Origin: Dehalococcoidia bacterium
GTDB lineage: Bacteria; Chloroflexota; Dehalococcoidia; UBA6926
NCBI GenBank assembly: GCA_965204885.1
Contig: OZ242019.1
Span: 1,127,327-1,191,326 of the forward strand
Length of the DNA: 64,000 nucleotides
Direction of reading: 5' to 3'
Shown here: one piece after another, positions 8,883 through 51,393 of the stretch
Numbering within the stretch: the stretch's first letter is position 1
Layout of the letters: every line of letters begins with the position of its first letter
Notes under the pieces: model-generated
The model's database searches: none
What the model saw: the letters and a program-made list of their open reading frames with translations, nothing else
Told to the model about the DNA's origin: nothing
Made by a program: the position numbers and the translations under genes

Positions 8883-10838
8883 TCAAGAGGCTGCGTCCAA
8901 GGTTTCGCCAAGTATTTCTTTCAGTACATACCGTTTGAATGCGTCAACACTTGTGAAGCAGCGGTAACCGGCGCTTGCGCCAACAGAGAGTGTCTCAATC
9001 CCTTCATCAAGCAGAACCGCAACAGGTTGGCTCAAGCCCTCTTGTAGGCCATTTGGCCATGCCAAATCGAATATCGCTAGTGGAGAGTCGTTTTCGGGGT
9101 CAGTGTAATCAAATCCCATTTCGCCATGTGCGAGCCCGTGAGATTCCACCCAGTCATTGAGGTTCACTAGCTCAGCCTCCTCGTCCGAGCTAGCAATCTC
9201 GCCCGGAACCTCAATCGGTTGGCTGGCCGACGGTTCCTGCGTTACCGGCGATGGCGTTGGCTCCGAACTCTCGGTGAGAGTGCTCATCAACTTATTAGTC
9301 TGGGCGGCCATTAGTTGTGCCCGCTCCTCGAGAAAGCCAGGATAATTGTCTAGGTGCCAAAGATTACGATTCGTAGGAATCCACTGTGATTCGAGTGCGC
9401 CGGGATGATTAGCGGCAACTTCTTCGAGATACTCCTGAGGATTACGATTGCTAATCTGCAGATTGCTGTCCTTTGTCAGGAAACAAAGATTGCCCAACGC
9501 ATTGACTTGGGCGCGCGAGTAACCGTGCTTATAGAGCAAGGATTTAGGAAATATGTGATGAACCTCAAGCTGATTCATTTTCCCAACATTGCCTTGCTTG
9601 AGAGGCAAACCGGTTCCCAAATCTCTACTGTCGGACATCCTCGTGAGCATATATAGAACGGGGTAAAACCTTGCGCCGAGCCCCAGACCTTCTGAAAAGT
9701 GCTGGGATTCGACTGTTGGACGATTCCAAATCCTGACACGTTCCACGAGTGACTCAAGCGGCGATTTGGTGTCATTGTCGAGTGTTGCCAGATCCTGCTC
9801 AAGCGATGTTTCTGTGTTGCCAGAGTACCGGCCCCACATACCAGCTTGGGCATAGTAGTAGAGCAGATTTCCTTGTTCGAGGGCATCCGGCGATTTATTG
9901 TATCGATCATAGAACCGTGCCATGACTGGCACTGCGTGGCGGGCAAAAAATACTCTGTCGTGATCCAGACCCAAGCGGCCATCAATCAATGCAATGATGG
10001 CATCAATTGACCTTACGGCTCTGCCAAGCCCATCCTTCACTTCTTCGGAAGACTTTTCGCTTAAATATCTGAAATCGGCTCGCCCGGTAAGGATGGAGTT
10101 GATCGACCGAAGAAGCCATACAAGGTCGAAATAGTAGCCTTTTTTATTCCACTCATCCAGTGCGTCCTTCATTCTTTCTCTAGCCTCGGGCCAACCGGCG
10201 CATATCTTCGCTAGTGCCAGATCGCCTTTAGAGAGCTTGGTGCCACCACTGTTCACGCGGTTGAAAATATCGACCACAATATCAAGATCAAGATCTTTGC
10301 TCGCCATTATCTCTATTGGCAACTCGACCTCCCGAATCCCCAAGAGGCGACTCAGACGGCCATAGATTTCAGATGTCCGAAGAGTGTCGTTCTCCGGTAA
10401 GTCAACGTGGTCGAGGTAGCTAGACCCTGCACGCATAACGTCCGTGACGTTTACCCAGAGCGGATCGTCGCGCATTCTTATCGCTTGATAAAACTCGAAC
10501 CTCTCGGTACCAACGTGGAACATTAAACCAGTGAATGTTCTTTCATCGCCGTCAAAGAATCCAGGAGGTCCTCCCCTGACAACGCCATACAATGTCGTGA
10601 CTCGCTGCTGACCATCCAGCAACAACTGCACGACGCCCGGCGGGGGTGTATTTGAGCCTCGAAAGTCCGCAGTACTTGCGGATGTCTCCCAAATGAGCAA
10701 GCCTCCCACGGGATGCTTGCGATACAGTGAATCGAACAGACTTCTAACTTGTTCTCTGTTCCATACGTAACTTCGCTGAAACTTTGGCAGACTTATTTGC
10801 CCGCTGTCGACTCGGTCAAGGATTGTGGATATCTGCAC
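8883..10838 (-). CDS. GmrSD-family type IV restriction endonuclease (DUF262 + DUF1524) with extra C-terminal domain
   Basis: N-terminal LPKFQRSYVW...LLDGQQRVTTL (DUF262/ParB-like) and EVHHIFPKS (DUF1524 His-Me finger); P/S/E-rich linker then ~100 aa tail with FDLAWPNG...VAVLLDEG; AT-rich. Confidence 0.8.
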   Translation of the reverse strand: MQISTILDRVDSGQISLPKFQRSYVWNREQVRSLFDSLYRKHPVGGLLIWETSASTADFRGSNTPPPGVVQLLLDGQQRVTTLYGVVRGGPPGFFDGDERTFTGLMFHVGTERFEFYQAIRMRDDPLWVNVTDVMRAGSSYLDHVDLPENDTLRTSEIYGRLSRLLGIREVELPIEIMASKDLDLDIVVDIFNRVNSGGTKLSKGDLALAKICAGWPEARERMKDALDEWNKKGYYFDLVWLLRSINSILTGRADFRYLSEKSSEEVKDGLGRAVRSIDAIIALIDGRLGLDHDRVFFARHAVPVMARFYDRYNKSPDALEQGNLLYYYAQAGMWGRYSGNTETSLEQDLATLDNDTKSPLESLVERVRIWNRPTVESQHFSEGLGLGARFYPVLYMLTRMSDSRDLGTGLPLKQGNVGKMNQLEVHHIFPKSLLYKHGYSRAQVNALGNLCFLTKDSNLQISNRNPQEYLEEVAANHPGALESQWIPTNRNLWHLDNYPGFLEERAQLMAAQTNKLMSTLTESSEPTPSPVTQEPSASQPIEVPGEIASSDEEAELVNLNDWVESHGLAHGEMGFDYTDPENDSPLAIFDLAWPNGLQEGLSQPVAVLLDEGIETLSVGASAGYRCFTSVDAFKRYVLKEILGETLDAAS

Positions 10839-11040: not shown

Positions 11041-13626
11041 TTATACGTCGTCTGTATGCCTCCATCTCCTCCTCGCGCCTACCAGGCCAAGCAAAAGGCC
11101 GCCGAGGAGGAGGATGTCTGCGGTGGGGGCGCCGGCGAAGCAGCCGCCGCCGGAGTCGCCTTCATCCTCGCCGTTCGTTGGGATCGTCGTTGTGCCGTCG
11201 CCGCCCGTCGTTGTGCCGGTGGCGGACGCTTCCACGGTCAGGACGCGTTCCGAAACGGTCGAAAGTTGATCGCTGTAGGCGGTGATGGAGAGGCGGTAGA
11301 GGCCGGGGACGAGCGCGGCCGTCTCACCTGCAGAGAACGGCACGGTGAACCCGCCGCCGTCCGCCGTTGCGTCGCCGGATTTGACGACATTGCCCGTCGC
11401 GGGATCCGACCACACGTAGCGGACACCCAGCTCGCCGGGGCCGTCAACGTTCACGCTTACGTCCAGCGACTGCCCGATGACGATGCCGCCGACGCTCTCC
11501 GGTTCAAGGCTGATGGGCTCCGCCGCGCCGAAGTGCCAGTCGCCCGGCTTGAACGGGTAGTTCTCATCGCGGAATGCCTTGAGTTCGGCGAACTGCGCGG
11601 GCGGATCGAATCGCTCCAGGTAGAACGGCCCGTTGCTGATCACCATCAGGCTGCGCTCATCGAACCACGACTGCGCGGCGCGATAGCGCTCAAGCGCCTC
11701 CTGCTCCGTCACGAGGGCCTGCCCGCCGATGGTCAGCGCCGCCATGGGCACGAAGCCATCGCGCTCGAACTGCCCAAGCGCGCGGTCGACGGTGCGGGCG
11801 TCGCGGTCCTGCACCAGGCTGAGCCAGGGCACGCCGAATCGCTGCGCGGACGTATCGCTGTAGGCGGCGCGGCGCTGGTTGAACACCACGTCATCCATGG
11901 CGGCGAGCACCTCCCACGGCATGGTCATGCCGCCGGGGACGGCGTATTCCGCGATGTAGTCGTCCACGAAGTGCCAGTAATCGACGTAGACCTCGATACG
12001 GTTTTCATCCAGCACGCGGAAGCCGCGGATGGTGTCCAACAGCGGCTTGGCGGTTGTTGAGATGGCAAACTCGACCTGCGACTTCTCCGGCCCGTAAACC
12101 ATGTCAAAGGTCTGGTAGATGTCATAGACAAGGTCGGCCATCGTGATCTGCTGGCCGTGATGCCACGGGGCCTGGAAGAACTTGCTGTAGTCGAACGTGA
12201 CCTTTGAGGTGGCCTCCACGCCATCGCCCACGCTCGCCCACTCTCCTGCATCCGCGTCCCATCGCTGGACGTTGGAGGGCACGGGCATCTTTGCGCCCGG
12301 CCCCGCCGTTTCCACCTGGTAGTTGGCGCGCATGGGGATGGGCAGGCCGGTGAACGGATGTCGCGTCATTGCCGGATCGGCCAGGTTGCGCCACACGTCG
12401 GCGCTGTAGACATCGCCAAAGCCGGAGACAGGGTTCCATGTGCTGCGCTCTGTCCATACCCACAGATGGCCGACGGTGAGCGTGTCCTGATCCGGCACAT
12501 ATGCCTCACGGAACGTCCACTGGAGCTTCGGTCCCGCCGCCACGTCCTCCGTCACTCCGACGATGTTCGAGTTGGCGGGGAATGTTGTCAGGATTGTCGC
12601 GAGCCAGACGCGAACGGACTCTTCGACGGACAAGCGCGTGACCTCCTGGTACAGCGCGTCGCGCTCCTCGCGGTCGTTAAAATCGCCGCGGAATATGCGT
12701 TGTCCGAGGTCATCGATTCGCGCATTCTCGTACTGCCAGAAGCCGGTTTCCTGCCAGCCGGGCATGCTGCCCAGCCACGGCGCGGTCATCTGGTTGATGG
12801 TGGCGGAGTCATAGCGTTCCGCCGCGCCGCGCCCCCATCCTTCCGTGTAGGCGTGCCACTCAAACAGTTGCGGATCAGTGCTGTAAACGGTGAGGATGGC
12901 CGGGGCGAACTGGTGATAGATGGGAGCAATCAGGAATCCCGCCTGTTCCAACTCGGCGCGGATCAGGTCACCCACCTCGCGGCGCTCATCCTCCACGCGG
13001 ATGATGAACCGCAGGCGGATCGGCTCGTCGTTGTAATTCCACGCGCCGTCCACCATCGTTGCGCCAGCCGCCGTCATGGCGTCGGCGATGGCTGCACGTG
13101 CCCGTTCCGGGTCATAGGACAGGTCCTGCCGCGCCAGCATCTCCGCAACGACCGTGTAATCAAAGTCGAACGGGTTGACGTGCGTTTCCATGGGACGGGC
13201 GAGGCCCTTGTAGATTTCCTGCGTGATGAACTCGCGGTTGACGAGGTGTTGGACCGCGCGCCGCACCTCCGGCAGGGAGAACGGGTTGAGCTGCCCCTCC
13301 GGCGCGGGCGCCGGGTTCAGGATGAGGGAGATCGTCGATGCCGGCGCCTCGTACAACTCGATGGAACCATCGTCGCGCAGGGCCTGCGCCGCGTCCGTCT
13401 TGAGATTGAAGATGTACATGTCCATCTCATCTCGCTGGATCTCCTGCGGCGCGAGGTCAACGTTGAATGAGCGGTAGTGGAGCGTATCCACGGCTGGCCC
13501 GGGCAGGTCATGCGGCGGGCGGTAGTCATCACCGCTCTGGGCGAGCACTGCGCCGCTCCCGGCCACGAGGCCGGCTACCAGCACAAGACCGAGGATGAGC
13601 GGGAGACGGAGCTTAAAATTACGCAT
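11041..13626 (-). CDS. secreted solute-binding-protein-like (family 5-like) protein with C-terminal Cys-containing sorting-like tail
   Basis: Signal peptide MRNFKLRLPLILGLVLVAGLVAGSGAVLA; start ATG at 13626 lies 4 nt after the upstream stop; tail ...DSGGGCFAGAPTADILLLGGLLLGLVGARRRWR. Confidence 0.55.
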   Translation of the reverse strand: MRNFKLRLPLILGLVLVAGLVAGSGAVLAQSGDDYRPPHDLPGPAVDTLHYRSFNVDLAPQEIQRDEMDMYIFNLKTDAAQALRDDGSIELYEAPASTISLILNPAPAPEGQLNPFSLPEVRRAVQHLVNREFITQEIYKGLARPMETHVNPFDFDYTVVAEMLARQDLSYDPERARAAIADAMTAAGATMVDGAWNYNDEPIRLRFIIRVEDERREVGDLIRAELEQAGFLIAPIYHQFAPAILTVYSTDPQLFEWHAYTEGWGRGAAERYDSATINQMTAPWLGSMPGWQETGFWQYENARIDDLGQRIFRGDFNDREERDALYQEVTRLSVEESVRVWLATILTTFPANSNIVGVTEDVAAGPKLQWTFREAYVPDQDTLTVGHLWVWTERSTWNPVSGFGDVYSADVWRNLADPAMTRHPFTGLPIPMRANYQVETAGPGAKMPVPSNVQRWDADAGEWASVGDGVEATSKVTFDYSKFFQAPWHHGQQITMADLVYDIYQTFDMVYGPEKSQVEFAISTTAKPLLDTIRGFRVLDENRIEVYVDYWHFVDDYIAEYAVPGGMTMPWEVLAAMDDVVFNQRRAAYSDTSAQRFGVPWLSLVQDRDARTVDRALGQFERDGFVPMAALTIGGQALVTEQEALERYRAAQSWFDERSLMVISNGPFYLERFDPPAQFAELKAFRDENYPFKPGDWHFGAAEPISLEPESVGGIVIGQSLDVSVNVDGPGELGVRYVWSDPATGNVVKSGDATADGGGFTVPFSAGETAALVPGLYRLSITAYSDQLSTVSERVLTVEASATGTTTGGDGTTTIPTNGEDEGDSGGGCFAGAPTADILLLGGLLLGLVGARRRWRHTDDV

Positions 13627-16003
13627 CGGACTCGACCTCGTCATTGTTGTTCGCCCGGCGGCGTCTGCGCACGTTGAGCTGCACCGCGCCGATGATGCCC
13701 AATGCAATCAACCCCACCAACGCCATGTCCGCCGTCGCGTTGCCCGTGCCGCACCCGCCGGACGCACCATTATCATCTGTTTCGCCGGACTCGATACGCT
13801 CCAGCGCCTCCTGGATGCTGGCCAGGGCCTCTGAACTCAACGCAGCCTTGATGTCCGCGATGTCCGCGGCGGTCTCCTGAAGATTATCGAAGCCGAACTC
13901 ATTGTAGAAGGACGCCGTCGCGGAGTTGCCGGAGGCGTCGAAAACGGCGACGCTCTGCGGCCCCTCGCCGGCAGTCGGGAAGAAGAGCTGCGTCGTGAAT
14001 CGCCCCTCATCGTTCGACTCGATGGTGGATACGAGAACGCCGCTGACGAGGATGAAGATGTCCTGATCGGCCTGGAAATTGAACCCCTGGATAGTCACCG
14101 TTGTGGCGGACGCGCCGCGCGCCGGTGAGAGGAAGATCGACGGGCTGGGCATCTGGCGCATCCGCGCAAACCCGATCTTCTGGTTCGTGCCCTGGAACTC
14201 GCCGAGACGGGTGTCAGGCCATACGAGGTACACGTCCTCATCAGTGGCAGCTATTGCCATGTAGTCACCAATGAACTGACCACCGGGGAATCCGAAGTTG
14301 GGGTTGGACGCGGAGTCCGTGACGCGGGAGTTGATGCTGAACGACTCCCCGTTGTCCTCGGACACGGCGTAGTAAATGTGATAGCGAAGGTCGATTCCCG
14401 GATCGTCCCGCGTATCCGCCCACATGACGTGAACCTTGCCGTCCGGTGAAACATCAATCGATGGGAAGAACTGGATGCCGGACGTGCGGTCATCGTTGAT
14501 TCGGAGTGGTGGGCGGCTCCACGTCCGCCCCTCGTCCATGGAACGGATAAACATCACGTCCGCGTCATCAGACGGGTCGCCGGACGGCGCGGCGGAAAAC
14601 GTCACGTACAGTTCCTCATTCGGCCCGACGGCTATTCGTGAGAAGGCTGACCCCCAGAATCGGTAGAAGCTGCTTCTTGGCGAGAAGCCCAACTCCAGGT
14701 AGCTAGCGGCCTGCCGCCCGCTTTCGAACGTGTCGCCCCCGTCCTCGGACTTCGCGACGTACATCTGTGCCAGCCCTTCGAACGGGCCGTCGTCAGAGGA
14801 GTCCATCCACGAAACGTAAACGGTTCCGTCGTCATGCGTCGCCACATAGGAGCCCTGGACGATGCGCTTCAGGCTCTCAATGACCTGCCCGCCGGGGATT
14901 GTGTCCGGCGATTGCAGCGCCCCAGGATTTTCCTGAATGGTCACCTGCTCCGCGCCGCCAAACTCGAAGACCTGCCGGATGATCGGGCTGACGACAACAG
15001 GATCGGACCAAGTGATGCCGCCGTCCTCTGAGCTAACCACTTCGATGGTCGTCTGAAGGACGGGATCGCTGAGGAAGGCGAGCTCATCCGTATAGCGGAT
15101 GCGGTACGTCGTGTTGAAGTGGGTGTAGGAGATGTAGATGATGTCCGAGTCCGGGTCATCCGGGTTTGGGCCCACGGCCAGCCACGGCTTGTCCAGGAAC
15201 CCGAGAGATATGGTTCCACGGGTTCGGCCAAGCGAATCAATCTCAAACTCGGATGTTACTCCGCTCCTGACCGCCGGCGTGCCCTGCGTCCACGTGAATC
15301 CGCCGTCACTGGACGAACTCAACGCCATGCTGGAGACAACCGCCGACCCCAACAGGTTGCCGACCGTGAACTCTTCGATGTCAAGGGAGATGAAGGTGTT
15401 GTAGATGGAACCGTCCCGGTCGAATGCCAGAACAGGGTCGCCGCCCGCACCGAGTTCCTCGCGCGGGCGCTTGATCACCGCAGGCCCCTCCCACGTCACG
15501 CCGCCGTCATAGGTCACGTACATGGTGGTGCCCGGGAAGTTGTAGTCGATCATGCCGGCGACGATGTGGTCCGGGTCGTCCGGATCGACGGCCAGATGCG
15601 GCTCCGTCTGGAGCGGGGCCGCGCTGAAATCCGTCGGGATCAGGATGTTGCGGCTGAAACGCGCCGAGGGATCGCGGTAGGGGACGAGAACGCCGCCCTG
15701 CGAATCAGGCGCGCCCTGCGCGGAGGCGACGGGGCCTGTCTGCCCCTCGCCGGCGATACTTTCCGAGTCCGCGTCGATGCCCTGGGCCATCAGCGAGACA
15801 CGCCCGGACAGGTACCGGGCAGTCTGATCTCTAAAAGCGAGCACATCAGGCGCAAGGTACGGATAGTCGGGTGTGAGGATGCCCGGAGAGCCTGTCGTCT
15901 GCCGCTCGCCCTCCTGCGCTCCGGCAAAGCCTGCCGGGGAGACAGCTAACACGATCACAGAGATAGCCGTTAGTACTAGTAGTCGGGTCAGATTCCGCTG
16001 CAT
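13619..16003 (-). CDS. secreted BNR/Asp-box repeat protein (sialidase-fold-like) with C-terminal sorting-like tail
   Basis: Signal peptide; at least six S-x-D-x-G-x-T-W/F repeats (YDGGVTWEG, SSDGGFTWTQG, SEDGGITWSDP, SEDGGDTFESG, SMDEGRTWSRP, SEDNGESFS); tail ...GASGGCGTGNATADMALVGLIALGIIGAVQLNVRRRRR. Confidence 0.7.
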   Translation of the reverse strand: MQRNLTRLLVLTAISVIVLAVSPAGFAGAQEGERQTTGSPGILTPDYPYLAPDVLAFRDQTARYLSGRVSLMAQGIDADSESIAGEGQTGPVASAQGAPDSQGGVLVPYRDPSARFSRNILIPTDFSAAPLQTEPHLAVDPDDPDHIVAGMIDYNFPGTTMYVTYDGGVTWEGPAVIKRPREELGAGGDPVLAFDRDGSIYNTFISLDIEEFTVGNLLGSAVVSSMALSSSSDGGFTWTQGTPAVRSGVTSEFEIDSLGRTRGTISLGFLDKPWLAVGPNPDDPDSDIIYISYTHFNTTYRIRYTDELAFLSDPVLQTTIEVVSSEDGGITWSDPVVVSPIIRQVFEFGGAEQVTIQENPGALQSPDTIPGGQVIESLKRIVQGSYVATHDDGTVYVSWMDSSDDGPFEGLAQMYVAKSEDGGDTFESGRQAASYLELGFSPRSSFYRFWGSAFSRIAVGPNEELYVTFSAAPSGDPSDDADVMFIRSMDEGRTWSRPPLRINDDRTSGIQFFPSIDVSPDGKVHVMWADTRDDPGIDLRYHIYYAVSEDNGESFSINSRVTDSASNPNFGFPGGQFIGDYMAIAATDEDVYLVWPDTRLGEFQGTNQKIGFARMRQMPSPSIFLSPARGASATTVTIQGFNFQADQDIFILVSGVLVSTIESNDEGRFTTQLFFPTAGEGPQSVAVFDASGNSATASFYNEFGFDNLQETAADIADIKAALSSEALASIQEALERIESGETDDNGASGGCGTGNATADMALVGLIALGIIGAVQLNVRRRRRANNNDEVESDA

Positions 16004-16174: not shown

Positions 16175-18508
16175 GTGTCACATACCCTTGGTCGATGGAT
16201 TGCGCCGCGCTTCGTAGTCCTCACCCTCACCATCGCGCTCGGCCTCGTTCTCATTGTTGCCGCATGCAACGGTGATGAGGCCACGCTGACGCCGGAGACC
16301 GTTGAACCGGCGACTCCCACCCCAGCGGCGACGCCGCTATCGATTCCTACCGCTACTGTTACCCCTGAGACGACCGCCGCTGCGCCCACTGCCATACCAA
16401 CTCAAACGGATGACGACGATGAAACGGAAGCACTTATTCCATCCGATTTGGAAACCTATACGGATGACCTCTATGGCTACACGGTGGAGGTACCCGAAAA
16501 CTGGACCGGCGCGCGACCGGAAAGCGGATCAGTGAGCGTTGCCACGGTCTTTGACACTGATAATGAGGACATCATTGCCCAGACATTTGTCCTCTTCACC
16601 GCCGAGGAGGCGCACGCGGCTGACATTGCCCGTGAACAGATAACGCCGCTGGCCGGACTCAGCGGATTCCGCACAATCACAGAGTCGGACATCATCCTGG
16701 ACGACGGCTTGGAAGCTCACCAGGTCTTCTACGGTTACGGCACCGGCACCAACGAACACCGCGGCTCGGTTACCTTTATTGCTCGCGGAACAATGGCCAT
16801 GGGCATCCAGACGCAGGCTCCACGCACCATCTATGAGCGCAACTTTGACGTACTGGATTCTGTTTCCACCAGCATCCGCGCCGTCGCTCCACAGCCTTTT
16901 GGCGCGCCTTCTGACGACACCCTTGTCCTCTACCTCGACCGAGGGCCGCTGACACTGGATCCCGGGGTATCAACAGATGCCCAGTCCTCGCAGTACATTC
17001 GCCAGATATTCAGCGGCCTCGCGCGCCTCGATGCAGACCTGATTCCGGAGCCTGACCTCGCCACATGGGACGTTTCGGAAGACGGCACCGTTTACACGTT
17101 CACCATCAAGGACGGCGCCCAGTTCCATGACGGCACTCCCGTAACGGCGCAGGACTTCATCTTCTCGTGGGAACGTGCCCTGAACCGCAACCTGCCGCCT
17201 GTCGGCGGAAGCGCAGGATCGTATCTTGATGACATCGTTGGCGCAAAGGCATATCACGCGGGTGAGGCCGACTCCGTCACCGGCCTTGAGGCGACAGACG
17301 ATTCAACCCTTGTCGTCACCATCGACGAGGCCAAGAGCTACTTCGTCTCCAAGCTGACGCACCCATCCGCCTACGTGGTACTGCAATCCAACGTACCGGA
17401 GGTTCCTGACCCTCGCCTCGTTGAAGAGGAGGATGAGAACGGGGAATCCTCTGAAGATGAGCAAACGGATGACGCCGACGGTGAAGACCGGCCGGATCCG
17501 TGGTACTACACCGCGATCGGGACCGGGCCGTATCGCCTCGCGCACTACGAGTCGTCCCGAGCGGCGCATTTGACCGTGTTTGAGGGCTACCTTGGCCCCT
17601 CACACTCCATTGGCAACCTGGTCTTCCGTTTCCACGCGGGACTCTCGACGGCGATGGTTGAAGAGGGATTTATCGACGCAACCACGCGGATCGGATCGGG
17701 GGACTACGATTCCCTCGTTGAAGAAGAAAGCCCGTTGGTTGAGCACATCACACAGACGGACGCCCTGAGCGTTCAGTACCTGGCTTTCAATACGGTGACG
17801 GGGCCTAATGACACTGAGGCGCCGTTCAGTGACCCGGACGTTCGCCGCGCCTTCCTGATGGCAGTGGATCGGCAAGCAATCTTTGAAGAGCATGCCGCCT
17901 CCGGCGTAAAGATTGCGCACGGGTTCATGCCGCCCGGCCTCCCCGGCTATGACGAAAACATTGAGGAAATCACGTACGATCCCGTGGCCGCAAAGGCACT
18001 TTTGGACGGCACCGAATTTGGCCAACTTGGAGACGAACAACCCCCAATCTTTGTTGCGGATTCCGGCGACGCGGGGGAGATTTACCGCGCCATCTTCAGT
18101 CAATGGCAGGACAATCTTGGCGTCCGCATCCAGTATCGACCCATCGGCCGCACGTACTTCTACCAACTGCCCCAAGTCGTGGAGGCGGGTTTCGGTATCT
18201 ACGGCTACGGATGGCTTGCCGACTACCCCGACCCGCACAACTTCCTCGATGTTCTCTTCCATACCGAGTCCCCGAACAATGACGGCAAGGCGGGTTCTAC
18301 AGCAATCGACGAACTGCTGGAACAGGCCAGAATCGCCGGAGAGGGGCGCATGGAGCAATATCAAGAGATTGAACGCAGGATGATCCAGGAAGCCGTAGCC
18401 CTCCCGCTCTACTTCGGCAGTGACTACATCCTTGTCTCCGAGCGCGTTGGGAGCCTTTCGCTCGATGCGCAGGGCTTCCTGCGGCTGGAAGACGCTGCGC
18501 TGAACTGA
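16175..18508 (+). CDS. ABC transporter substrate-binding protein, family 5 (peptide/nickel type), lipoprotein
   Basis: GTG start with SD aggagg; lipobox LIVAAC; low-complexity P/T/A linker; SBP_bac_5-type core (YLDRGPLTLDPG...AQFHDGTPVTAQDF). Confidence 0.8.
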   Translation: MSHTLGRWIAPRFVVLTLTIALGLVLIVAACNGDEATLTPETVEPATPTPAATPLSIPTATVTPETTAAAPTAIPTQTDDDDETEALIPSDLETYTDDLYGYTVEVPENWTGARPESGSVSVATVFDTDNEDIIAQTFVLFTAEEAHAADIAREQITPLAGLSGFRTITESDIILDDGLEAHQVFYGYGTGTNEHRGSVTFIARGTMAMGIQTQAPRTIYERNFDVLDSVSTSIRAVAPQPFGAPSDDTLVLYLDRGPLTLDPGVSTDAQSSQYIRQIFSGLARLDADLIPEPDLATWDVSEDGTVYTFTIKDGAQFHDGTPVTAQDFIFSWERALNRNLPPVGGSAGSYLDDIVGAKAYHAGEADSVTGLEATDDSTLVVTIDEAKSYFVSKLTHPSAYVVLQSNVPEVPDPRLVEEEDENGESSEDEQTDDADGEDRPDPWYYTAIGTGPYRLAHYESSRAAHLTVFEGYLGPSHSIGNLVFRFHAGLSTAMVEEGFIDATTRIGSGDYDSLVEEESPLVEHITQTDALSVQYLAFNTVTGPNDTEAPFSDPDVRRAFLMAVDRQAIFEEHAASGVKIAHGFMPPGLPGYDENIEEITYDPVAAKALLDGTEFGQLGDEQPPIFVADSGDAGEIYRAIFSQWQDNLGVRIQYRPIGRTYFYQLPQVVEAGFGIYGYGWLADYPDPHNFLDVLFHTESPNNDGKAGSTAIDELLEQARIAGEGRMEQYQEIERRMIQEAVALPLYFGSDYILVSERVGSLSLDAQGFLRLEDAALN

Positions 18509-18570: not shown

Positions 18571-18945
18571 ATGCCCCGTCCGATCGCGCATTTTGAAATC
18601 GCAGCCCGCGACGCCCAGACACTGCAGGCGTTCTACGGCGCGCTGTTTGACTGGGATATCAACGCGGACAATCCCATGTCCTATGGCCTCGTCACCGCGA
18701 AGGACGGCGACGTGGGCATCGACGGCGCGATCTATAACCATGATGCCGAGGACGAGAATGACCGCCCCGGCATCCGCCTCTACATGCAGGTGGATGATGC
18801 CGACGCCTACGCGGCCCGCGCGGAGGAACTCGGCGGCAAATCCATGGGTCCCGCGCAAGAGGTGCCCGGCTTTGGGATCAAGGTGGGCGGCATCATCGAC
18901 CCTGAGGGCAACATCATCGGCGTCATCCAGGCACTGGACGAATAG
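18571..18945 (+). CDS. VOC (glyoxalase/bleomycin-resistance) family protein
   Basis: 124 aa; HFEIAARD...GIIDPEGNIIGV pattern; SD aaaaggag. Confidence 0.6.
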   Translation: MPRPIAHFEIAARDAQTLQAFYGALFDWDINADNPMSYGLVTAKDGDVGIDGAIYNHDAEDENDRPGIRLYMQVDDADAYAARAEELGGKSMGPAQEVPGFGIKVGGIIDPEGNIIGVIQALDE

Positions 18946-18954
18946 AAAAAAATA

Positions 18955-19031
18955 TGGAGGCGACGGCGGGATTCGAACCCACGAATAGGGGATTTGCAGT
19001 CCCCCGCCTTAAACCACTTGGCTACGTCGCC
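18955..19031 (-). tRNA. tRNA-Cys (GCA)
   Basis: Reverse complement: GGCGACG acceptor, anticodon loop CTGCAAA, GGTTCGAATCC T-arm, CCA encoded. Confidence 0.8.
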
Positions 19032-19095
19032 CCGGTTCCGTCTGATGCCGTGTGACTGACAGAGTACCCATGATAGCGCCGTTGTCCAGCGGGTG

Positions 19096-19182
19096 TGGTG
19101 CCGAGGAGGAGATTTGAACTCCTACGAGCTTTCGCCCACTGCCCCCTCAAGACAGCGTGTCTACCAATTCCACCACCTCGGC
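19096..19182 (-). tRNA. tRNA-Leu (GAG)
   Basis: Reverse complement: GCCGAGG acceptor, anticodon loop TTGAGGG, long variable arm, GAGTTCAAATCTC T-arm, CCA encoded. Confidence 0.8.
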
Positions 19183-19227
19183 AAGACCTGCCCACTGCGC
19201 GCGCCCTGCCCCGAATGGATGGAGCGC

Positions 19228-19304
19228 TGGCAGGAGCGGAGGGATTCGAACCCCCGACCGACGGTTTTGGAGACCGTTGCTCTTCCGGACTGAGCTACGC
19301 TCCT
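19228..19304 (-). tRNA. tRNA-Trp (CCA)
   Basis: Reverse complement: AGGAGCG/CGCTCCT acceptor, anticodon stem ACGGT/ACCGT with loop CTCCAAA, GGTTCGAATCC T-arm. Confidence 0.8.
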
Positions 19305-19346: not shown

Positions 19347-20411
19347 TCAAACGATTTCAGCATCATCAGATACGGATTCTGCCGTATCCTGTTGCACCCT
19401 AGCCTGCCCCTCTTCGCCATACAAATGGCACTCCACGGTACGATTAGGCTCCACCTGCACCAGGGGGGGTTCGACCACGTCGCACAGCCCGGCCATGAAC
19501 GCCGGGCAGCGCGGATGGAAACGGCACCCGCTGGGCACGTTGGCCGGGCTGGGGGCCTCCCCGGGCAGCACCGGCCTCTCCGCGAGTCGATTCGCCGGAT
19601 CAGGCTCAGGCACCGCGTTTAGAAGCCCCTGCGTGTACGGGTGCAGGGGGTTGCTGATCAGTTCAGTGGTTGGCCCCTGTTCAACGACACGGCCCAGGTA
19701 CATGACAGCCGCCGTCGGGGCGAAGTGCCGCGCCGTTGCGATGTCATGCGTGATGTAGAGATAGCCGATGCTGTGACGTTCCTGCAGTTCCCGCAGCAGC
19801 GCCAGGATCTCGGCGCGGCTCGAGGCGTCGATCATCGAGACCGGCTCATCGGCAAGGATGTACTCCGGTGTCAATGTCAGTGCCCGCGCGATGCCGACAC
19901 GCTGCCGCTGACCACCAGAAAGCAGATGCGGGAAACGGTCAAGGAAGTCTGACGCCGGCCGCATCCGTACCTCGTCGAGCGCCCACTCCACGCGCTCCAG
20001 CCGCTCGGACGCCGAGCCTTCCCTGTGGATAACGAGCGGCTCTTCAACGATCTGACGAATCGTCATATATGGATCGAGGCTGGTGAACGGGTCCTGGAAG
20101 ATGCCCTGCGCCTGCCGTCTAAATTTTTTGAGCTGGGCCTCCTTGAGAGGCGTTATGTCCTCTCCGTCGAATATTACGCGCCCCGCCGTCGGTTCCAGCA
20201 GGCGCAGTGAAACACGCCCCAAGGTTGTCTTGCCGCAGCCGGACTCTCCCACGATGGCGATGGTCTCGCCGCGATCCAGCGCCAGAGACACGCCATCCAG
20301 CGCTCGTACAGTCGTTGTGCGGAAACCACGCCCGCGCGACTTGAAGTGCATCGCCACGTCTCGAAGATCGAGCATCGGGGCGGCGCTCATTTCCGTCTGG
20401 GCAGTCGTCAT
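19347..20411 (-). CDS. oligopeptide/dipeptide ABC transporter ATP-binding protein (OppF/DppF-like)
   Basis: Walker A GESGCGKTT, LSGGQRQRV signature, C-terminal oligopeptide-ABC extension; start taken at the ATG overlapping the upstream stop (ATGA). Confidence 0.8.
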   Translation of the reverse strand: MTTAQTEMSAAPMLDLRDVAMHFKSRGRGFRTTTVRALDGVSLALDRGETIAIVGESGCGKTTLGRVSLRLLEPTAGRVIFDGEDITPLKEAQLKKFRRQAQGIFQDPFTSLDPYMTIRQIVEEPLVIHREGSASERLERVEWALDEVRMRPASDFLDRFPHLLSGGQRQRVGIARALTLTPEYILADEPVSMIDASSRAEILALLRELQERHSIGYLYITHDIATARHFAPTAAVMYLGRVVEQGPTTELISNPLHPYTQGLLNAVPEPDPANRLAERPVLPGEAPSPANVPSGCRFHPRCPAFMAGLCDVVEPPLVQVEPNRTVECHLYGEEGQARVQQDTAESVSDDAEIV

Positions 20412-21400
20412 GGTGTTTCCTCGTCCAATAGCCAGCATGCCGCTAAAGACTGACCGCTTGGTGTGGTGAAATCGCGCGGATCCTCGACGCGGCACTTATC
20501 CATGGCGAACTGGCAGCGCGGATGGAATCGGCAGCCCGTCGGCGGATCGGAAAGGTCAGGAGGCGCGCCCGGGATGAACTCCAGCGGGGTGTCCGAACGG
20601 AGGCGTGGGATAGCCGCCAACAGCTTCTGCGTGTAGGGATGGGACGGCGCGCCGAGAATGTCCTCCGACGGGCCGATTTCCACCAGCCGCCCCGCGTACA
20701 TCACGGCAATGTGATCCGCCAGATCACTGGCCAGCGCGATGTCATGGCTGATGAAGATTGACGCGATGTCCAGATTGGCCTTGAGCCGCTTGAACAGGTT
20801 CATGATCTGCGCCTGCACGCCCACGTCGAGCGCGGAAGTCGGCTCGTCCAGCAGAATCAACGTGGGGTCAAGCGCCAACGCGGAAGCCACGGCGATGCGC
20901 TGCTTCATGCCGCCGCTCAGTTCATGCGGGTAGCGGTTGAACGTCTCCGGCGGCAGCCGCACCATGTCCAGCAACTCGCGCGTGCGCTCGTCCGCCTCCT
21001 GGCGTGATTGGCCGCCGCGCGATGTCAGCACTTCCCGAACCTGGTGCCCAACCTTGTAGATAGGGTTAAGGGACTCCGTCGCGCCCTGGAACACCATTGA
21101 AATCTGCCGCCAGCGCACGCGGTCACGGAAATCGCCGTCCGAGAGCGCCATACAGTCCGCGCCGTTGAGAGTTATCTGCCCATCGAATTGGGATGTGTTG
21201 CGCGGCAGCAGGCGCAGAAGCGCAAGAGCGAGACTCGTCTTGCCGGAGCCGGACTCGCCGACGATGGCAAGGGTCTCCCCCGCTGCAAGGTCGAACGACA
21301 CGCCGTCCACCGCACGCACGTCGCCCCGGTCAGCCGCATAAAACAGGCGTAGGTCGCGTACTGAGAGAAGAGGCTTGTTGCCCGACTGCCGCGCGTTCAT
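20408..21400 (-). CDS. oligopeptide/dipeptide ABC transporter ATP-binding protein (OppD/DppD-like)
   Basis: GESGSGKTS Walker A, LSGGMKQRI signature; start at MNARQ..., ATGA overlap with permease stop. Confidence 0.8.
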   Translation of the reverse strand: MNARQSGNKPLLSVRDLRLFYAADRGDVRAVDGVSFDLAAGETLAIVGESGSGKTSLALALLRLLPRNTSQFDGQITLNGADCMALSDGDFRDRVRWRQISMVFQGATESLNPIYKVGHQVREVLTSRGGQSRQEADERTRELLDMVRLPPETFNRYPHELSGGMKQRIAVASALALDPTLILLDEPTSALDVGVQAQIMNLFKRLKANLDIASIFISHDIALASDLADHIAVMYAGRLVEIGPSEDILGAPSHPYTQKLLAAIPRLRSDTPLEFIPGAPPDLSDPPTGCRFHPRCQFAMDKCRVEDPRDFTTPSGQSLAACWLLDEETP

Positions 21401-22830
21401 GCCGCCGTCTCCCGCAGGCGTGGATTGAGCACCGGCTCCATGGCCAGCGCGAGAAGGACGAAGGTCATGGCAGTGATGACGATGAGGATGCCCGGCGGTA
21501 GTATCCACCACCAGTAGCCGATGAAGATCGCGCCCGTACGGAATCCCTGCTCGAGGATCTGCCCCCACGTTGGCAAGGAAGGGTCGCCGAGTCCCAGGAA
21601 GCTCAGCCCCGCCTCGGCGAGAATCGCCGCCGGGGTGAAGAAGATCATCTGCGCGACGATGAACGGGGCCATCTGGAAGAAGACGTGCCTAAACATGATG
21701 CGCCACCGCGACGCGCCAAGCGCCTGCGTGGCCTCCACCAGCTGCCCGGACCGCACCTGCAGCACCATGGAGCGGAGGATGATGGTCAGCCCCGGCCAAC
21801 CGAATATCACGAGGATCGTCATCACCAGCCAGAGTTTCTGGCCGAGAACGAATATCAGGAAGATGAGGATCGGCAGCAGCGGGATGTTCGTCATCACGTC
21901 GGACAGCCGCTGGATGACGGTGTCCGTCCTGCCGCCTGAGAACCCGCTCAGGATGCCGAAGAACGTGCCAAGGATGGTGGCAGCCACGCTCGTCGATATG
22001 CCGATGATGAGCGCGACGGGAAAGCCGAACATCAGGCCCGTCGCGAGATTGCGCCCCTGCGTATCCGTTCCCATCAACCCGAACACGCCGCCCGCCGCCA
22101 CGAATCGCACGCTCTCAACCGAGTCCCGCGCGTCGTAGGTAATGACGCGAATCGTCGCCGTGTATTCACCCGTCAGCGGTTCGAACTCGGCGGCATCATT
22201 CGATACGGGCGTGCCGAACAGCGCCGCCTCCAGGTTGCCCTGCATCTCTGCTTCGCTGAGGCGCAAGTTGAACTCACGTTGGAGGAAGTCGGTTGCTGCG
22301 GTGAGCGCGTTGGTGTCTCCCGTCAGGTAGATGCGGCGCGGTTCATCGGCGAATCGCGTGATCGGCGGTGTCTCGTCGGGACGTTGTCCGCGCACCACCT
22401 CCTGCAGGATCGTTGCCGTGCGTCCGTCAGGCCGCGCAAGCGTCATCGAGATCACGGGAGGGCGGTCATAGAAGGTCACCTCGCCAACGGAGACGGAGAG
22501 GAATGTGGGTGGCGACTCAGACTCATGGTCGAACGTGAACGAATACAGGCGTGTTGTCGCAGGGCCGGTCTCGACGGTTTGCGTGGGCGTCTCGGCATCG
22601 AAAACGCGATGGCGGGGAGCCTGATCGCCGACGAGGTTGGTCCATGCGGGCGGCGCGGCTTTGGGGTTGTCCGCCCAAGCGATGGGGTTGTTCCAGAACC
22701 GCAGGCCGAAATCCAGCGGGTAGAAGAACGGCACCAGCAGGGACACGAACACGAGCACGGCCAGCAGGCCGATGCCCAGCCTGCCCGAGCCTGATCGGAG
22801 TACGACGCGAAGCGCCTCGCCCGGCCTCAT
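21397..22830 (-). CDS. ABC transporter permease (OppC/DppC-like) with large N-terminal extracytoplasmic domain
   Basis: BPD_transp_1-type TM core in C-terminal half; overlaps the upstream permease stop. Confidence 0.8.
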   Translation of the reverse strand: MRPGEALRVVLRSGSGRLGIGLLAVLVFVSLLVPFFYPLDFGLRFWNNPIAWADNPKAAPPAWTNLVGDQAPRHRVFDAETPTQTVETGPATTRLYSFTFDHESESPPTFLSVSVGEVTFYDRPPVISMTLARPDGRTATILQEVVRGQRPDETPPITRFADEPRRIYLTGDTNALTAATDFLQREFNLRLSEAEMQGNLEAALFGTPVSNDAAEFEPLTGEYTATIRVITYDARDSVESVRFVAAGGVFGLMGTDTQGRNLATGLMFGFPVALIIGISTSVAATILGTFFGILSGFSGGRTDTVIQRLSDVMTNIPLLPILIFLIFVLGQKLWLVMTILVIFGWPGLTIILRSMVLQVRSGQLVEATQALGASRWRIMFRHVFFQMAPFIVAQMIFFTPAAILAEAGLSFLGLGDPSLPTWGQILEQGFRTGAIFIGYWWWILPPGILIVITAMTFVLLALAMEPVLNPRLRETAA

Positions 22831-23882
22831 TGCGCCGTATACCTCACGCGCGGATCCAGAACGACGTACAGCACCTCAAGCACGAACCGCGCCGCCACGT
22901 ACATCAGCGTGAACATGAACGTCAGCGCGACGATGACGGCCTCATCCGCCGTTGTGATTGCGTCGAAGTAGAGCCGTCCCATTCCGGGCCAGTTGAAGAC
23001 GGTCTCAGTCAGGATCGCGCCGCCGATGGAGCCGGTGAGGGCGAGGATGATATTGGTGGCGATGGGCGGCGCGGCCACGCGCAGGATATGCCGCCGCATC
23101 ACCTGTCCCTCCGGCAGGCCGCGTGCCCGTGCCGCCGTCACGTGGAACTCCTGCGCCGTGTTCAGCAGCATCGTCCGCACCACATACGTCCACGCGCCCA
23201 CGGAGACCAGCACGAGCGTCAGGATGGGCAGCGCCGCGTGCCAGAGCAGGTCCATGAAGCGCAGCAGTTCCCCTTCCGGCGGCGGCGAACTGTACAGCCC
23301 GCCGGAAGGGAATATCCGCAGCTGGAAGGAGAGGACGAGGATCAGCAGGATGCCCGCCCACCACGCGGGCAGGGCGTTCGACGCGGCGGCAAGGTAGGAC
23401 GCGAGGCGGTCGCTCCGCGTGCCCACGCGAGTTGCCAGCTTTGCTCCCAGCCATAACCCGATGATTGCCGTGATGACGAGCGACGTCGTCACCAACATCA
23501 TCGAGTAGGGCACTCGCTCCAGCACGATGTCCGTGACGCGTGACGAGCCGTCGAAGCTTCGTAAATTGCGCGCTGATCCGAGGTCCAGTGTGAGCACTCG
23601 TCCAACCATTGCGGGCAGGCGTGTGTACCAGGGATCGTCCAGGCCGTAGAACTCCTCCAGGTCGACTCGCCGTTCCCGCAGCGTCTCTTCAAGGCGTTCC
23701 GGGTCTCGAATCGTCTCGGCGAGTGCCTGCCGCTGCCCCCGCATCTCCTCGGAGACGATGGCGGTCAACATGCGATCGGAGAATCCGGTCGCGCCAAGCG
23801 TCACGACAACCAGCACAAGGACAACGAGAACGACGCCCACCAGGCTGAGGGCGCGCAATCCGAGTGTGTACGCAAGCGCCAT
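22827..23882 (-). CDS. ABC transporter permease (OppB/DppB-like)
   Basis: Six TM segments and EAA-like loop; first gene of the minus-strand operon. Confidence 0.8.
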   Translation of the reverse strand: MALAYTLGLRALSLVGVVLVVLVLVVVTLGATGFSDRMLTAIVSEEMRGQRQALAETIRDPERLEETLRERRVDLEEFYGLDDPWYTRLPAMVGRVLTLDLGSARNLRSFDGSSRVTDIVLERVPYSMMLVTTSLVITAIIGLWLGAKLATRVGTRSDRLASYLAAASNALPAWWAGILLILVLSFQLRIFPSGGLYSSPPPEGELLRFMDLLWHAALPILTLVLVSVGAWTYVVRTMLLNTAQEFHVTAARARGLPEGQVMRRHILRVAAPPIATNIILALTGSIGGAILTETVFNWPGMGRLYFDAITTADEAVIVALTFMFTLMYVAARFVLEVLYVVLDPRVRYTAQ

Positions 23883-29554: not shown

Positions 29555-30745
29555 ATGGATGGGGCCCGGGGAATCAAGCCAATGGTTGATGGAAAAGCGC
29601 GTGGAATTTTACGTGTACTGCTCATCGCCATGTCCGTCTTTGTGATGGCCTTCATCGCCTGCGGGGAGCCGCTCCCCACTTTCACACCCGTCGCCACTCC
29701 CACTGAAACCCCCGGCCCATCGCCAACACCGTCCCCGACAGAAACAGCCACCCCATCCCCCACCCGCACCGCCGTACCGACAGCCACGCAAGTGCCACCT
29801 CCGCCCACACCGACGGGAACACCCGTACCCACACCGACGCTGGTTCCATTCAATGACAGGGCGGCGCTAGAAGCACTCTACCATGCGACCGACGGCGACA
29901 ATTGGGTCCGCAATGACAACTGGTTAACTGATGCTCCTCTTGGTGAATGGTACGGCGTGACGACCAATGAGGAGGGGCGGGCTACCCACTTGGTTCTCCA
30001 TGAGAACCTGCTTAGCGGAGAGATACCGGTGGAACTTGGCTTATTGGCAGAACTCAGAAGATTGTCGTTCAACGCGAATACGTTGGGTGGAGAGATACCG
30101 GCGGAACTCGGCAATCTGTCTAACCTTGAAATTTTAAATCTCAGCATCAACAAGTTGAGTGGAGGGATTTCACCGGAACTGGGTGATCTTACGTCCGTTA
30201 GGTGGTTGACACTTGCGAATAACGAACTAAGTGGAGGGATTCCAGCCGACTTTGGCAACCTATCCAGCCTTGAAGGATTGGATCTCGCTTACAACCTGTT
30301 GAGCGACGAGATTCCAGCCGAACTGGGTAAACTGTCCAACCTAGAATACTTGCGGCTAAGCTTCAATCAATTGAGCGGTAATATACCACCAGAAATGGGC
30401 AATTTGTCCAACCTTGAAAATGTCCAGATCAGGGGCAACCAATTGAGCGGCGCTATTCCTGCAGAACTTGGCAACCTGTCCAATCTTAAGTCTCTACATC
30501 TCCCACAAAATGATTTGAGTGGTGAGATACCGCCGGAACTGGGTAGGTTGCCCACCCTTGAAAGTTTACATCTCTATGATAACCGGCTCAGTGGCATGAT
30601 ACCGCCGGAACTGGGTGATTTGACGTTGAAAGGGATATCCCTCTGGGGCAATCGGCTAGTGGGATGTATTCCCGCTGACTTGCGAGGCGTCCCGTCCAAC
30701 GATTTTGAGGCGCTTCAGCTACCATTCTGTCAAGATGCCCAGTGA
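29555..30745 (+). CDS. leucine-rich-repeat lipoprotein with plant-type 24-residue LRRs
   Basis: Lipobox FIAC; Pro/Thr-rich linker; about 10 repeats of LxxLxxLxLxxNxLSGxIPxELGN; 72-bp periodicity visible in the DNA. Confidence 0.75.
   Translation: MDGARGIKPMVDGKARGILRVLLIAMSVFVMAFIACGEPLPTFTPVATPTETPGPSPTPSPTETATPSPTRTAVPTATQVPPPPTPTGTPVPTPTLVPFNDRAALEALYHATDGDNWVRNDNWLTDAPLGEWYGVTTNEEGRATHLVLHENLLSGEIPVELGLLAELRRLSFNANTLGGEIPAELGNLSNLEILNLSINKLSGGISPELGDLTSVRWLTLANNELSGGIPADFGNLSSLEGLDLAYNLLSDEIPAELGKLSNLEYLRLSFNQLSGNIPPEMGNLSNLENVQIRGNQLSGAIPAELGNLSNLKSLHLPQNDLSGEIPPELGRLPTLESLHLYDNRLSGMIPPELGDLTLKGISLWGNRLVGCIPADLRGVPSNDFEALQLPFCQDAQ
29990..30700 (+). repeat. 72-bp tandem coding repeats (LRR units) inside the LRR gene
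   Basis: Recurring ...ctgtccaaccttgaa...caattgagcgg...ataccgccggaactgggt... units. Confidence 0.6.
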
Positions 30746-30815
30746 CCACTGCGGTCAGCGGGCGACGCAAGGCAACTGGCACACAACCTAATCAACCACA
30801 AGGAGCAACTAACTC

Positions 30816-30956
30816 ATGAAAGCAGTCCAGATTAGTGAGCACGGCGGGCCGGAGGTGCTGGAATTCACGGACGTTGATGATCCGATCGCGGGGCCGGGCG
30901 CGGCCGTTGTTCAACTCGCTGCCTCCGGCGCGACGATTTCCACGTCACTGTTGTAG
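30816..30956 (+). pseudogene. 5' fragment (46 codons) of a quinone oxidoreductase gene: duplicated copy of the start of the qor gene at 31799
   Basis: About 125 bp (~30800-30925) are ~88% identical to 31786-31908, including RBS and ATG; the frame terminates after 46 codons. Confidence 0.5.
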
Positions 30957-31756: not shown

Positions 31757-31798
31757 ACTCCGTAGGATACAGATTGCCGGAAGGAATGGAGCACTGAA

Positions 31799-32767: not shown

Positions 32768-32851
32768 ACGCTCTTGAAAGAATCCGCTCCCTTTTTGGGG
32801 AGGGGATGTGGATTCCCGTGTCAAGCACGGGAATGACGTGAAAGTGGCGGC

Positions 32852-48950: not shown

Positions 48951-49035
48951 GTTCTTTCCGATAGGCCACCCTAAACCGCCACTCGCCCCGTCACCGGCAT
49001 GACCGGCGCAGTGATAGGGAAGTGGGACAAGTGGC

Positions 49036-50810: not shown

Positions 50811-50910
50811 TATCTCACTCCAGCACTAGCCCGTAGCATCTTGTCCTCATTGTGACACGAAGCGGCTGCGGAGTCGTTATTCGAAACCCTTATCAAGTGT
50901 GGGAATAACG

Positions 50911-50990
50911 TGGCGCGCCCGGCAGGATTCGAACCCGTGACCCTCGGTTCCGAAGACCGACTACCCTCTACTCCGTTGAGCTACGGGCAG
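50911..50990 (-). pseudogene. degenerate tRNA-Arg(TCG)-like copy
   Basis: About 90% identical to the tRNA-Arg at 51394-51470 but has a C1:C72 mismatch, a 3-nt insertion in the D-arm and a T-stem change. Confidence 0.45.
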
Positions 50991-51330: not shown

Positions 51331-51393
51331 CTGACCTTTCCTCCCCGTCCGCTTGCTGGCGCCATCATCATTGTATCCGTGGGAACAGAATAG

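Follow-up and report, generated by a model that had tools for sequence, protein, structure and literature searches.

Two adjacent Dehalococcoidia surface proteins share a cysteine-containing C-terminal tail

Two overlapping genes encode secreted proteins of unrelated families

We analyzed a 64-kb stretch of DNA (hereafter, the window) that is part of a 1.85-Mb contig (OZ242019.1) of an uncultured Dehalococcoidia bacterium, in which two adjacent genes on the minus strand encode secreted proteins of unrelated families whose C-terminal tails, each containing one Cys, are alike. The upstream gene (13619–16003, −) encodes a surface protein of 794 amino acids (aa) with a BNR/sialidase-fold β-propeller (BNR protein), as judged from its open reading frame (ORF), Pfam, and an AlphaFold2 (AF2) model. 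The downstream gene (11041–13626, −) encodes a protein of 861 aa, counted from the ATG at 13626, with a long OppA/DppA-like (cluster C) fold of substrate-binding proteins (SBP-like protein). The sequence contains the two ORFs and their tails as described in an initial annotation made from the sequence alone. That annotation placed the two genes 4 nucleotides (nt) apart; in fact, the ATG of the SBP-like gene and the stop codon of the BNR gene overlap by 8 nt (ATGCGTAA), and the same overlap is found in orthologous loci. This overlap makes translational coupling of the two genes very likely.

Ordinary Sec signal peptides can be read from the sequence at the start of both proteins. In the BNR protein, the putative signal peptide (15917–16003, −; MQRNLTRLLVLTAISVIVLAVSPAGFAGA followed by QE, with an inferred cleavage site) precedes the propeller, an immunoglobulin (Ig)-like domain, a helical stalk, and the Cys tail. 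The AF2 model (mean predicted local distance difference test score [pLDDT], 77) contains a helix at residues 5–20 followed by a disordered stretch, the β-propeller, the Ig-like domain, two long helices, and a terminal helix. The match to Pfam BNR_2 was 28 bits, which is below the Pfam cutoff, and that to IPT/TIG was also weak. When the model was compared with the PDB, the best matches were sialidases of glycoside hydrolase family 33 (GH33; E-value, 2e-12; TM-scores, 0.27–0.55; identity, 11–14%), and homologues in Chloroflexota carry the annotation exo-alpha-sialidase. GH33 sialidases have a six-bladed propeller with a catalytic Arg triad, a Tyr/Glu nucleophile pair, and an Asp acid/base; the likeness of the BNR protein to them is one of fold, and its family contains many invariant R/Y/E/D residues.

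The SBP-like protein consists of a signal peptide, the binding fold, a C-terminal Ig-like domain, a Thr/Gly/Asp-rich linker, and the Cys tail. It matched SBP_bac_5 with 69 bits, and its closest relative in the PDB was OppA of Thermococcus kodakarensis (7fi3; E-value, 1.6e-29 in the sequence comparison and 7.6e-18 in the fold comparison; pLDDT of the AF2 model, 88). The family assignments of both proteins in the initial annotation hold in view of these Pfam and fold matches. Only residues 35–267, the extreme N-terminal part of the mature protein, match SBP_bac_5, and only profile positions 140–349 are covered; beyond this match lie ca. 500 well-folded residues (pLDDT >90) and the Ig-like domain (residues 706–801), and the fold matches align only ca. 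310–390 columns. Possibly, the SBP-like protein is a cluster-C binding protein of atypical or rearranged build.

The tails form a conserved tripartite element with a sole Cys

The BNR protein ends in ...SGGCGTGNATADMALVGLIALGIIGAVQLNVRRRRRANNNDEVESDA and the SBP-like protein in ...SGGGCFAGAPTADILLLGGLLLGLVGARRRWRHTDDV. The BNR tail (13655–13762, −) is composed of S748-G-G-C751-GTGNA-T-A-D759, a hydrophobic segment from M760 to V778, and an Arg cluster from R779 to R783; that is, SGGCGTGNATADMALVGLIALGIIGAVQLNVRRRRR followed by 11 acidic or polar residues until the stop codon. In the SBP-like tail (11059–11154, −), S825-G-G-G-C829-FAGAP-T-A-D837 is followed by a hydrophobic segment of 14 aa (I838 to A851) and by R852-R-R-W-R856, giving SGGGCFAGAPTADILLLGGLLLGLVGARRRWR and five more residues. 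The common layout of both tails is SGG(G)C-x5-[TS][AS]D, ca. 15 hydrophobic residues, and an Arg cluster. A degenerate DNA pattern of this motif matched the window exactly twice, compared with no match in 100 shuffles, and a six-frame regular expression search of the window for a Cys, a hydrophobic stretch, and a basic C-terminus returned these two tails and no third.

Cys751 (13751–13753) and Cys829 (11140–11142) are the sole Cys residues of the BNR and SBP-like proteins, respectively, and are located 7–8 residues outside the hydrophobic helix; the mean Cys content of the window proteins is 0.62%. Exactly one Cys was likewise found in all 32 SBP homologues that have a tail with a Cys and a transmembrane segment (Cys+TM tail). 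In 21 tails of the two families, G-G-C, the Asp, and a Gly located 10 residues past the Asp are invariant. The 'TAD' signature proposed in the initial annotation stands in part: the Cys and the Asp are conserved, but the two positions before the Asp are [TS][AS] in the orthologues. Among 54 Cys-type tails, the uncharged run before the basic cluster is headed by an acidic residue, which is Asp in 42 and Glu in 11, and the median length of this run is 15 aa versus 25–26 aa in orthologues with a plain transmembrane (TM) segment. The Thr/Gly/Asp/Pro-rich linker before the motif varies freely among orthologues, while the motif is conserved. The conservation of the motif next to a variable linker, together with the sole Cys, supports the earlier description of a tripartite tail (Gly-Gly-Cys motif, helix, and Arg cluster), and at the sequence level the tails appear to be a conserved, portable module and not an incidental membrane anchor.

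The nearest known signals are MYXO-CTERM and JDVT-CTERM

We compared the isolated tails with the C-terminal sorting signals in NCBIfam. The best match was MYXO-CTERM (TIGR03901; cutoff, 20 bits), with 25.6 and 24.9 bits for two orthologue tails and 21.4 bits for the BNR tail of the window; other isolated orthologue tails scored 17.9, 17.8, 14.6, and 13.6 bits, below the cutoff. JDVT-CTERM (NF033191; cutoff, 27 bits) was the second best with 11.5–18.2 bits, and the SBP-like tail of the window matched it weakly (12 bits). No match to GlyGly-CTERM (TIGR03501) was obtained for 12 isolated tails at E ≤ 10, and PEP-CTERM (TIGR02595; cutoff, 16 bits) gave 8.8–10.3 bits for two tails and nothing for the others. 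Neither tail contains an LPXTG pentapeptide, and no sortase domain was found in the window. The enzymes of MYXO-CTERM and JDVT-CTERM are CPBP-family myxosortases (10.1101/2023.06.07.544157; PMC11980579). Therefore, the nearest class is that of Cys-containing signals handled by CPBP-family myxosortases and not the exosortase/rhombosortase type to which the initial annotation had assigned the tails. It has been established experimentally that MYXO-CTERM is cleaved by the CPBP protease MrtX in a Cys-dependent manner (PMC11980579), and co-evolving lineage-specific variants of such signals are expected (10.1101/2023.06.07.544157). The paper on myxosortases contains no mention of Chloroflexi, and no description of a Chloroflexi C-terminal sorting signal of this type was found in the literature searched.

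The tails resemble MYXO-CTERM in their tripartite layout, with a Gly-rich motif containing an invariant Cys (GGC in the 21 tails), a helix, and an Arg cluster, and in their occurrence after a low-complexity linker on otherwise unrelated extracytoplasmic proteins. In contrast to MYXO-CTERM, they contain one Cys and no GCGC motif, and their helix is headed by a conserved [TS][AS]D (or E), 7–11 residues past the Cys. MYXO-CTERM often has dozens of targets per genome, whereas there are two carriers per genome here, and its hosts are Myxococcota or Bradymonadales, whereas the present host belongs to Dehalococcoidia (Chloroflexota). In addition, the full-length proteins score below the cutoff, and no myxosortase of the MrtX, MrtC, or MrtP type is encoded in the window or the loci examined. 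On the basis of sequence, JDVT-CTERM (enzyme, MrtJ) is the closest anatomical parallel to the Cys...[TS][AS]D motif and Leu/Gly-rich helix, since its single Cys is invariant and an acidic motif that hardly varies, 'DP', lies right before a Leu-rich helix. However, the tails have [TS][AS]D instead of DP, score below 27 bits, and have no CPBP gene in the neighbourhoods of their carriers.

CGP-CTERM (TIGR04288), the signal of the archaeomyxosortase MrtA of Thermococcales, is also a Cys-containing C-terminal signal past a Thr/Ser-rich linker, and, among solved structures, the nearest relative to the SBP-like protein comes from this order (7fi3). However, CGP abuts the helix without a spacer in a domain of only 20 aa, and scores of 12.6–13.2 bits (cutoff, 21 bits) were obtained only for other Chloroflexi tail types. 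In the Opp-type binding proteins of Sulfolobus and Aeropyrum, a signal peptidase I (SPase I) signal precedes the binding domain, which is followed by a glycosylatable Ser/Thr (S/T) linker and a C-terminal hydrophobic segment, and an ATP-binding cassette (ABC) importer is adjacent (PMC3387779). The SBP-like protein has a comparable set of features, namely a signal peptide, a cluster-C fold, a Thr/Gly/Asp linker, a C-terminal hydrophobic segment, and an Opp/Dpp importer nearby; it differs from the archaeal proteins, for which plain TM anchors are described, in the sole conserved Cys, the conserved Asp, and the hydrophobic run of ca. 15 residues.

The tail occurs on few proteins, and its form varies among orthologues

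The initial annotation had proposed a scan of the proteome for the tail and considered that the motif, if genome-wide, would define a lineage-specific sorting system. Scans for the tail were run on genomes of 185,579 species (one genome per species) and on 1.84 billion protein representatives, and few carriers were found. In the genome census, a 39-bit degenerate pattern (GGC-x6-[ASG]D-h-x-h-h-[GA]-x3-h-G-h-h) matched 27 stretches, 25 of which came from 22 metagenome-assembled genomes (MAGs) of Dehalococcoidia/Chloroflexota and two of which were chance matches. The true matches, 32 in number, were all orthologues of the pair (20 BNR and 12 SBP-like) with protein identities down to 58%. Other Cys-to-Asp spacings escape this pattern, in which the spacing is fixed, and one SBP lineage (L032) has a spacing one residue shorter; the census is therefore a lower bound. 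A pattern scan of Joint Genome Institute (JGI) metagenomes gave two true matches (one BNR and one SBP) and three chance matches, and no new family. The full HMMER search with a tail profile returned eight matches at E ≤ 0.001: six fragments of the SBP-like family, one protein with a β-helix and a CLIPPER domain (P0246/P0249; tail, SGGCGLGGPAADMGLIGLVAIGLLGL...), and one unrelated 276-aa protein (P0248; tail, KPGGCIPGAPTADLGIIALFMLGLVAV...). No second tail was found near the proteins that carry the tail outside the cassette. In local hmmsearch runs with the tail profile, known orthologue tails scored 64–90 bits; a profile of BNR tails only gave 16–30 bits for SBP tails, which makes detection across families borderline, and the eight matches are therefore also a lower bound. 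These results indicate that the set of substrates is small and dedicated and not proteome-wide. The β-helix/CLIPPER/tail gene (L044, 5797–10792; L033) is split by the insertion of a DDE transposase, on contigs dense in insertion sequences, and a radical SAM/SPASM gene is located a few kb from the split gene in L044.

We also classified the C-termini of 120 homologues of each protein. A plain TM segment with a basic cluster was present in 85 BNR homologues, most of them Cys-free, and a Cys+TM tail in 22; the other 13 had neither. The SBP-like homologues were divided into those with a Cys+TM tail (32), a plain TM segment (22), no tail (12), and a TM-less end of the form 'GGFSCSGPPLxxx' (54). In the last group (P0140–P0240; including L030, 12489–14993, and L031, 12294–14909), which ends in 'GGFSC[SA]GPPLxxx*', the Cys is the sole Cys of 50 of the 54 proteins. 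These ends matched no NCBIfam model, and no convincing TM segment or Arg cluster was encoded in any frame downstream of the short 'GFSC...' ends of L030 and L031, which argues against a hidden or frameshifted TM segment. When BNR/SBP pairs were compared by contig, a BNR protein with a plain TM segment was combined with a Cys+TM SBP in five cases and with a TM-less Cys-containing SBP in nine. According to the initial annotation, absence of the tail from orthologues, or its restriction to the two proteins without a correlated partner protease family, would speak against a sorting signal. Many orthologues indeed have a plain TM segment, a TM-less Cys-containing end, or nothing in its place; on the other hand, the profile search added two further unrelated carriers.

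Tails of the two families co-vary without gene conversion

On a groundwater Chloroflexi contig of a distant lineage (L042), the BNR protein ends in KGFGCSAAPGARAGLDLSVVAGALAMGVLLVRRRWW and its neighbour in GGFQCGKAPAGSAGLDLSVVAGLLGMVALARRRWR. The tail common to this pair is of a different type, G-F-x-C-x10-DLSVVAG...RRRW, and the distance from the Cys to the Asp is equal in both proteins. Identical tail residues are encoded by the same codon in 7 of 13 and 8 of 20 positions in the two lineages. Because different codons often encode identical residues, the likeness of the tails is maintained by selection rather than by a recent gene conversion of the neighbouring 3′ ends. As far as sequences can tell, the comparison supports co-variation of the tails between two unrelated families across lineages without gene conversion.

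Candidates for a processing enzyme

A Pfam scan of ca. 55 window ORFs revealed no CPBP, rhomboid, sortase, or exosortase domain, in agreement with the earlier statement that the window has no rhombosortase or exosortase gene. No PF02517 (CPBP) protein was encoded in the window or in the related loci examined. A 143-aa protein with four TM segments encoded upstream of P0248 (L034–L036) was considered as a processing enzyme and rejected, as it has neither CPBP motifs nor a Pfam match. MrtC was likewise dismissed as the Chloroflexi enzyme because it is the enzyme of Chondromyces. In L044, a rhomboid-family gene (16327–17043, −) is located 5.5 kb from the tail gene; its best NCBIfam match was rhombosortase (TIGR03902) with 32.5 bits (cutoff, 84 bits), and unrelated genes on the opposite strand separate it from the tail gene. 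We take the proximity of this rhomboid gene to be coincidental.

The pair belongs to a conserved cassette with an ABC importer

Divergently from the pair, an SBP_bac_5 lipoprotein gene (16175–18508, +) encodes 777 aa with the lipobox LIVAAC, whose Cys is the sole Cys of the protein; the position of this gene is likewise filled in L001, L002, and L030–L032. It is followed by genes of an Opp/Dpp-type ABC importer (19347–23882, −), consisting of two ATPases (19347–20495 and 20408–21568, with uncertain starts; ABC_tran and oligo_HPY) and two permeases (21397–22830 and 22827–23882; BPD_transp_1). The importer is syntenic with the BNR/SBP-like pair, and the same cassette layout is found in distant Chloroflexota loci. 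The probable role of this cassette is the capture and import of substrates derived from glycans or peptides. As judged from gene order, the tail carriers appear to be co-translated surface proteins of a nutrient-capture cassette comprising the propeller protein, the OppA-like protein, the SBP lipoprotein, and the Opp/Dpp importer. Other exported proteins of the window have ordinary lipoboxes, as the initial annotation noted (for example, those encoded at 16175–18508 and 51632–53395). The window also encodes the signal peptidase II LspA (44803–45420, −; Peptidase_A8, 127 bits), so the classical N-terminal lipoprotein pathway exists beside the C-terminal Cys tails. Between the lipoprotein and ATPase genes, the cassette also contains three tRNA genes (Cys-GCA, Leu-GAG, and Trp-CCA; 18955–19304, −), and a glyoxalase-like gene (18571–18945, +) is likewise located within it.

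Interpretation of the tails

We favour, at about even chances, the reading that the tails are a Dehalococcoidia-specific form of a Cys-containing tripartite sorting or anchoring signal that would be processed by a myxosortase-like enzyme. Both proteins would be exported by Sec via the cleavable N-terminal signals read from their sequences. The hydrophobic segment and the Arg cluster would then stop transfer, and sequence and models suggest an N-out/C-in orientation with the Cys at the outer face of the membrane and the Asp at the start of the helix. By analogy with the myxosortase systems, we infer cleavage and lipidation of the tails: the Cys would be covalently modified, most likely with a lipid, and the short helix would be cut off by an intramembrane protease encoded elsewhere, possibly a CPBP myxosortase-like one. 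As an outcome, both proteins might be lipid-tethered beside their ABC importer. More broadly, it is a tentative proposal that Dehalococcoidia and other Chloroflexota have their own Cys-dependent C-terminal anchoring, in which a Cys-x7-11-[DE] motif, a 15-residue helix, and an Arg cluster on a few nutrient-capture proteins would be recognized by a co-evolving intramembrane enzyme, perhaps of a new CPBP or rhomboid subfamily, and the TM-less 'GGFSCSGPPL' replacement in many relatives would be a second way of using the Cys.

Several observations weigh against processing of this kind. The full-length BNR protein scored only 14.5 bits against MYXO-CTERM, below the cutoff of 20 bits, and the SBP-like protein of the window did not match this model either as the full-length protein or as the isolated tail. 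No CPBP, rhomboid, sortase, or exosortase gene is present in the 64-kb window or in ca. 370 kb of related cassette loci, and with the fixed Cys-to-Asp spacing of the pattern only two families carry the tail in the 22 species-representative MAGs. A plain TM anchor suffices in 85 of the 120 BNR homologues, and 54 of the 120 SBP homologues keep the Cys without a TM segment, which intramembrane cleavage does not explain. The extension of the BNR protein past its Arg cluster, whose length of 11 residues is conserved, is longer than in most sorting signals. Finally, in archaea, Opp-type binding proteins with a glycosylated S/T linker are held by a TM anchor at the C-terminus without processing (PMC3387779).

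Many of these points would fit permanent, unprocessed type-I anchors, in which the Cys would serve a disulfide bond (in a homo- or heterodimer) or another local role and GxxxxG-type glycines would pack the helices, possibly with those of the ABC permeases; we regard this explanation as a serious possibility but a somewhat doubtful one. Plain TM segments are common in the orthologues, and tail types interchange in evolution. The archaeal OppA-like proteins, which combine an SPase I signal with an S/T linker and a TM segment at the C-terminus, offer a precedent (PMC3387779), and the best PDB relative is itself an archaeal OppA. The 11 residues after the BNR Arg cluster would form a cytoplasmic extension. 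The presence of one Cys per partner at a matched distance from the helix, the conserved Gly positions, and the failure to find a sorting enzyme in the window point in the same direction. However, the Cys tail of the SBP is kept beside a Cys-free BNR protein in the five and nine pairs described above. Because the Cys-bearing SBP often accompanies a Cys-free BNR protein, an obligatory interchain disulfide bond between the two is excluded; moreover, unrelated proteins encoded outside the cassette carry the tail without a second one in their vicinity. Additionally, a run of 15 residues headed by an acidic residue is a poor anchor compared with the ca. 25 residues of the orthologues, and the best hidden Markov model (HMM) likeness is to cleaved sorting signals.

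Handling of the tails by a rhombosortase or an exosortase/archaeosortase, as signals of the GlyGly-CTERM or PEP-CTERM type, is improbable. These signals share with the tails the tripartite layout, the Gly-Gly of the motif, and, in PEP-CTERM, an acidic residue that heads the helix, and the rhomboid gene of L044, 5.5 kb from a tail gene, has rhombosortase as its best NCBIfam match. However, neither GlyGly-CTERM nor PEP-CTERM matched at its cutoff, the score of the L044 rhomboid is far below 84 bits with unrelated opposite-strand genes in between, and no cognate rhomboid or exosortase gene is present in the window. An invariant Cys, moreover, is not a feature of these classes (10.1101/2023.06.07.544157). 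It is also hard to credit that the likeness of the tails is functionless and due to chance or to recent recombination of adjacent 3′ ends. The genes are adjacent and hydrophobic, Arg-rich tails are compositionally simple, but the motif matched the window twice and 100 shuffles not at all, has been conserved in 22 MAGs, in proteins as little as 58% identical, and differs at synonymous sites between the two tails; furthermore, a second, different common tail exists in L042, and the tail occurs on two further families.

If the tail is processed, myxosortase-type Cys-dependent surface anchoring would extend to Chloroflexota, an abundant and largely uncultured phylum of oceans, sponges, and the subsurface, and the annotation of a widespread Dehalococcoidia cassette (sialidase-fold enzyme, OppA-like protein, SBP lipoprotein, and ABC importer) would be improved. 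If it is only a permanent anchor, the result is a modest note on annotation. The occurrence of a plain TM segment, a Cys+TM tail, a Cys without a TM segment, or no tail on the same two families is a natural comparison set that could be used for phylogenetic profiling of modifying or cleaving enzymes.

Other features of the window

An exported LppX_LprAFG-like protein (30911–32824, −) contains 13 cysteines (2.0%), in contrast to the single-Cys proteins of the cassette, which indicates that a low Cys content is not general among exported proteins here. Next to the lowest-GC stretch of the window (0.537; bin 30001–32000), a gene at 29555–30745 (+) encodes a protein that combines leucine-rich repeats (LRR_1, 100.8 bits) and a hydrophobic segment near the N-terminus; its GC content at third codon positions (GC3) is 0.56, and the protein may be foreign or related to host interaction. 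Between RelA/SpoT and the cassette, a gene for a GmrSD-type (DUF262/DUF1524) restriction endonuclease (8883–10838, −) has a GC3 of 0.53 compared with ca. 0.8 in its neighbours. Since related loci hold other genes at this position, this defence gene was probably acquired by horizontal transfer. A low-GC block (0.55) at 48348–51470 contains an MvaI/BcnI-like endonuclease gene (48348–49076) and a DUF262/GmrSD_N-like ORF (49036–50496) with a further ORF at 50493–50810. Two tRNA-Arg(TCG) genes (50911–50990 and 51394–51470) are located at its edge, and the block resembles an island that inserted at a tRNA-Arg gene and duplicated its target.

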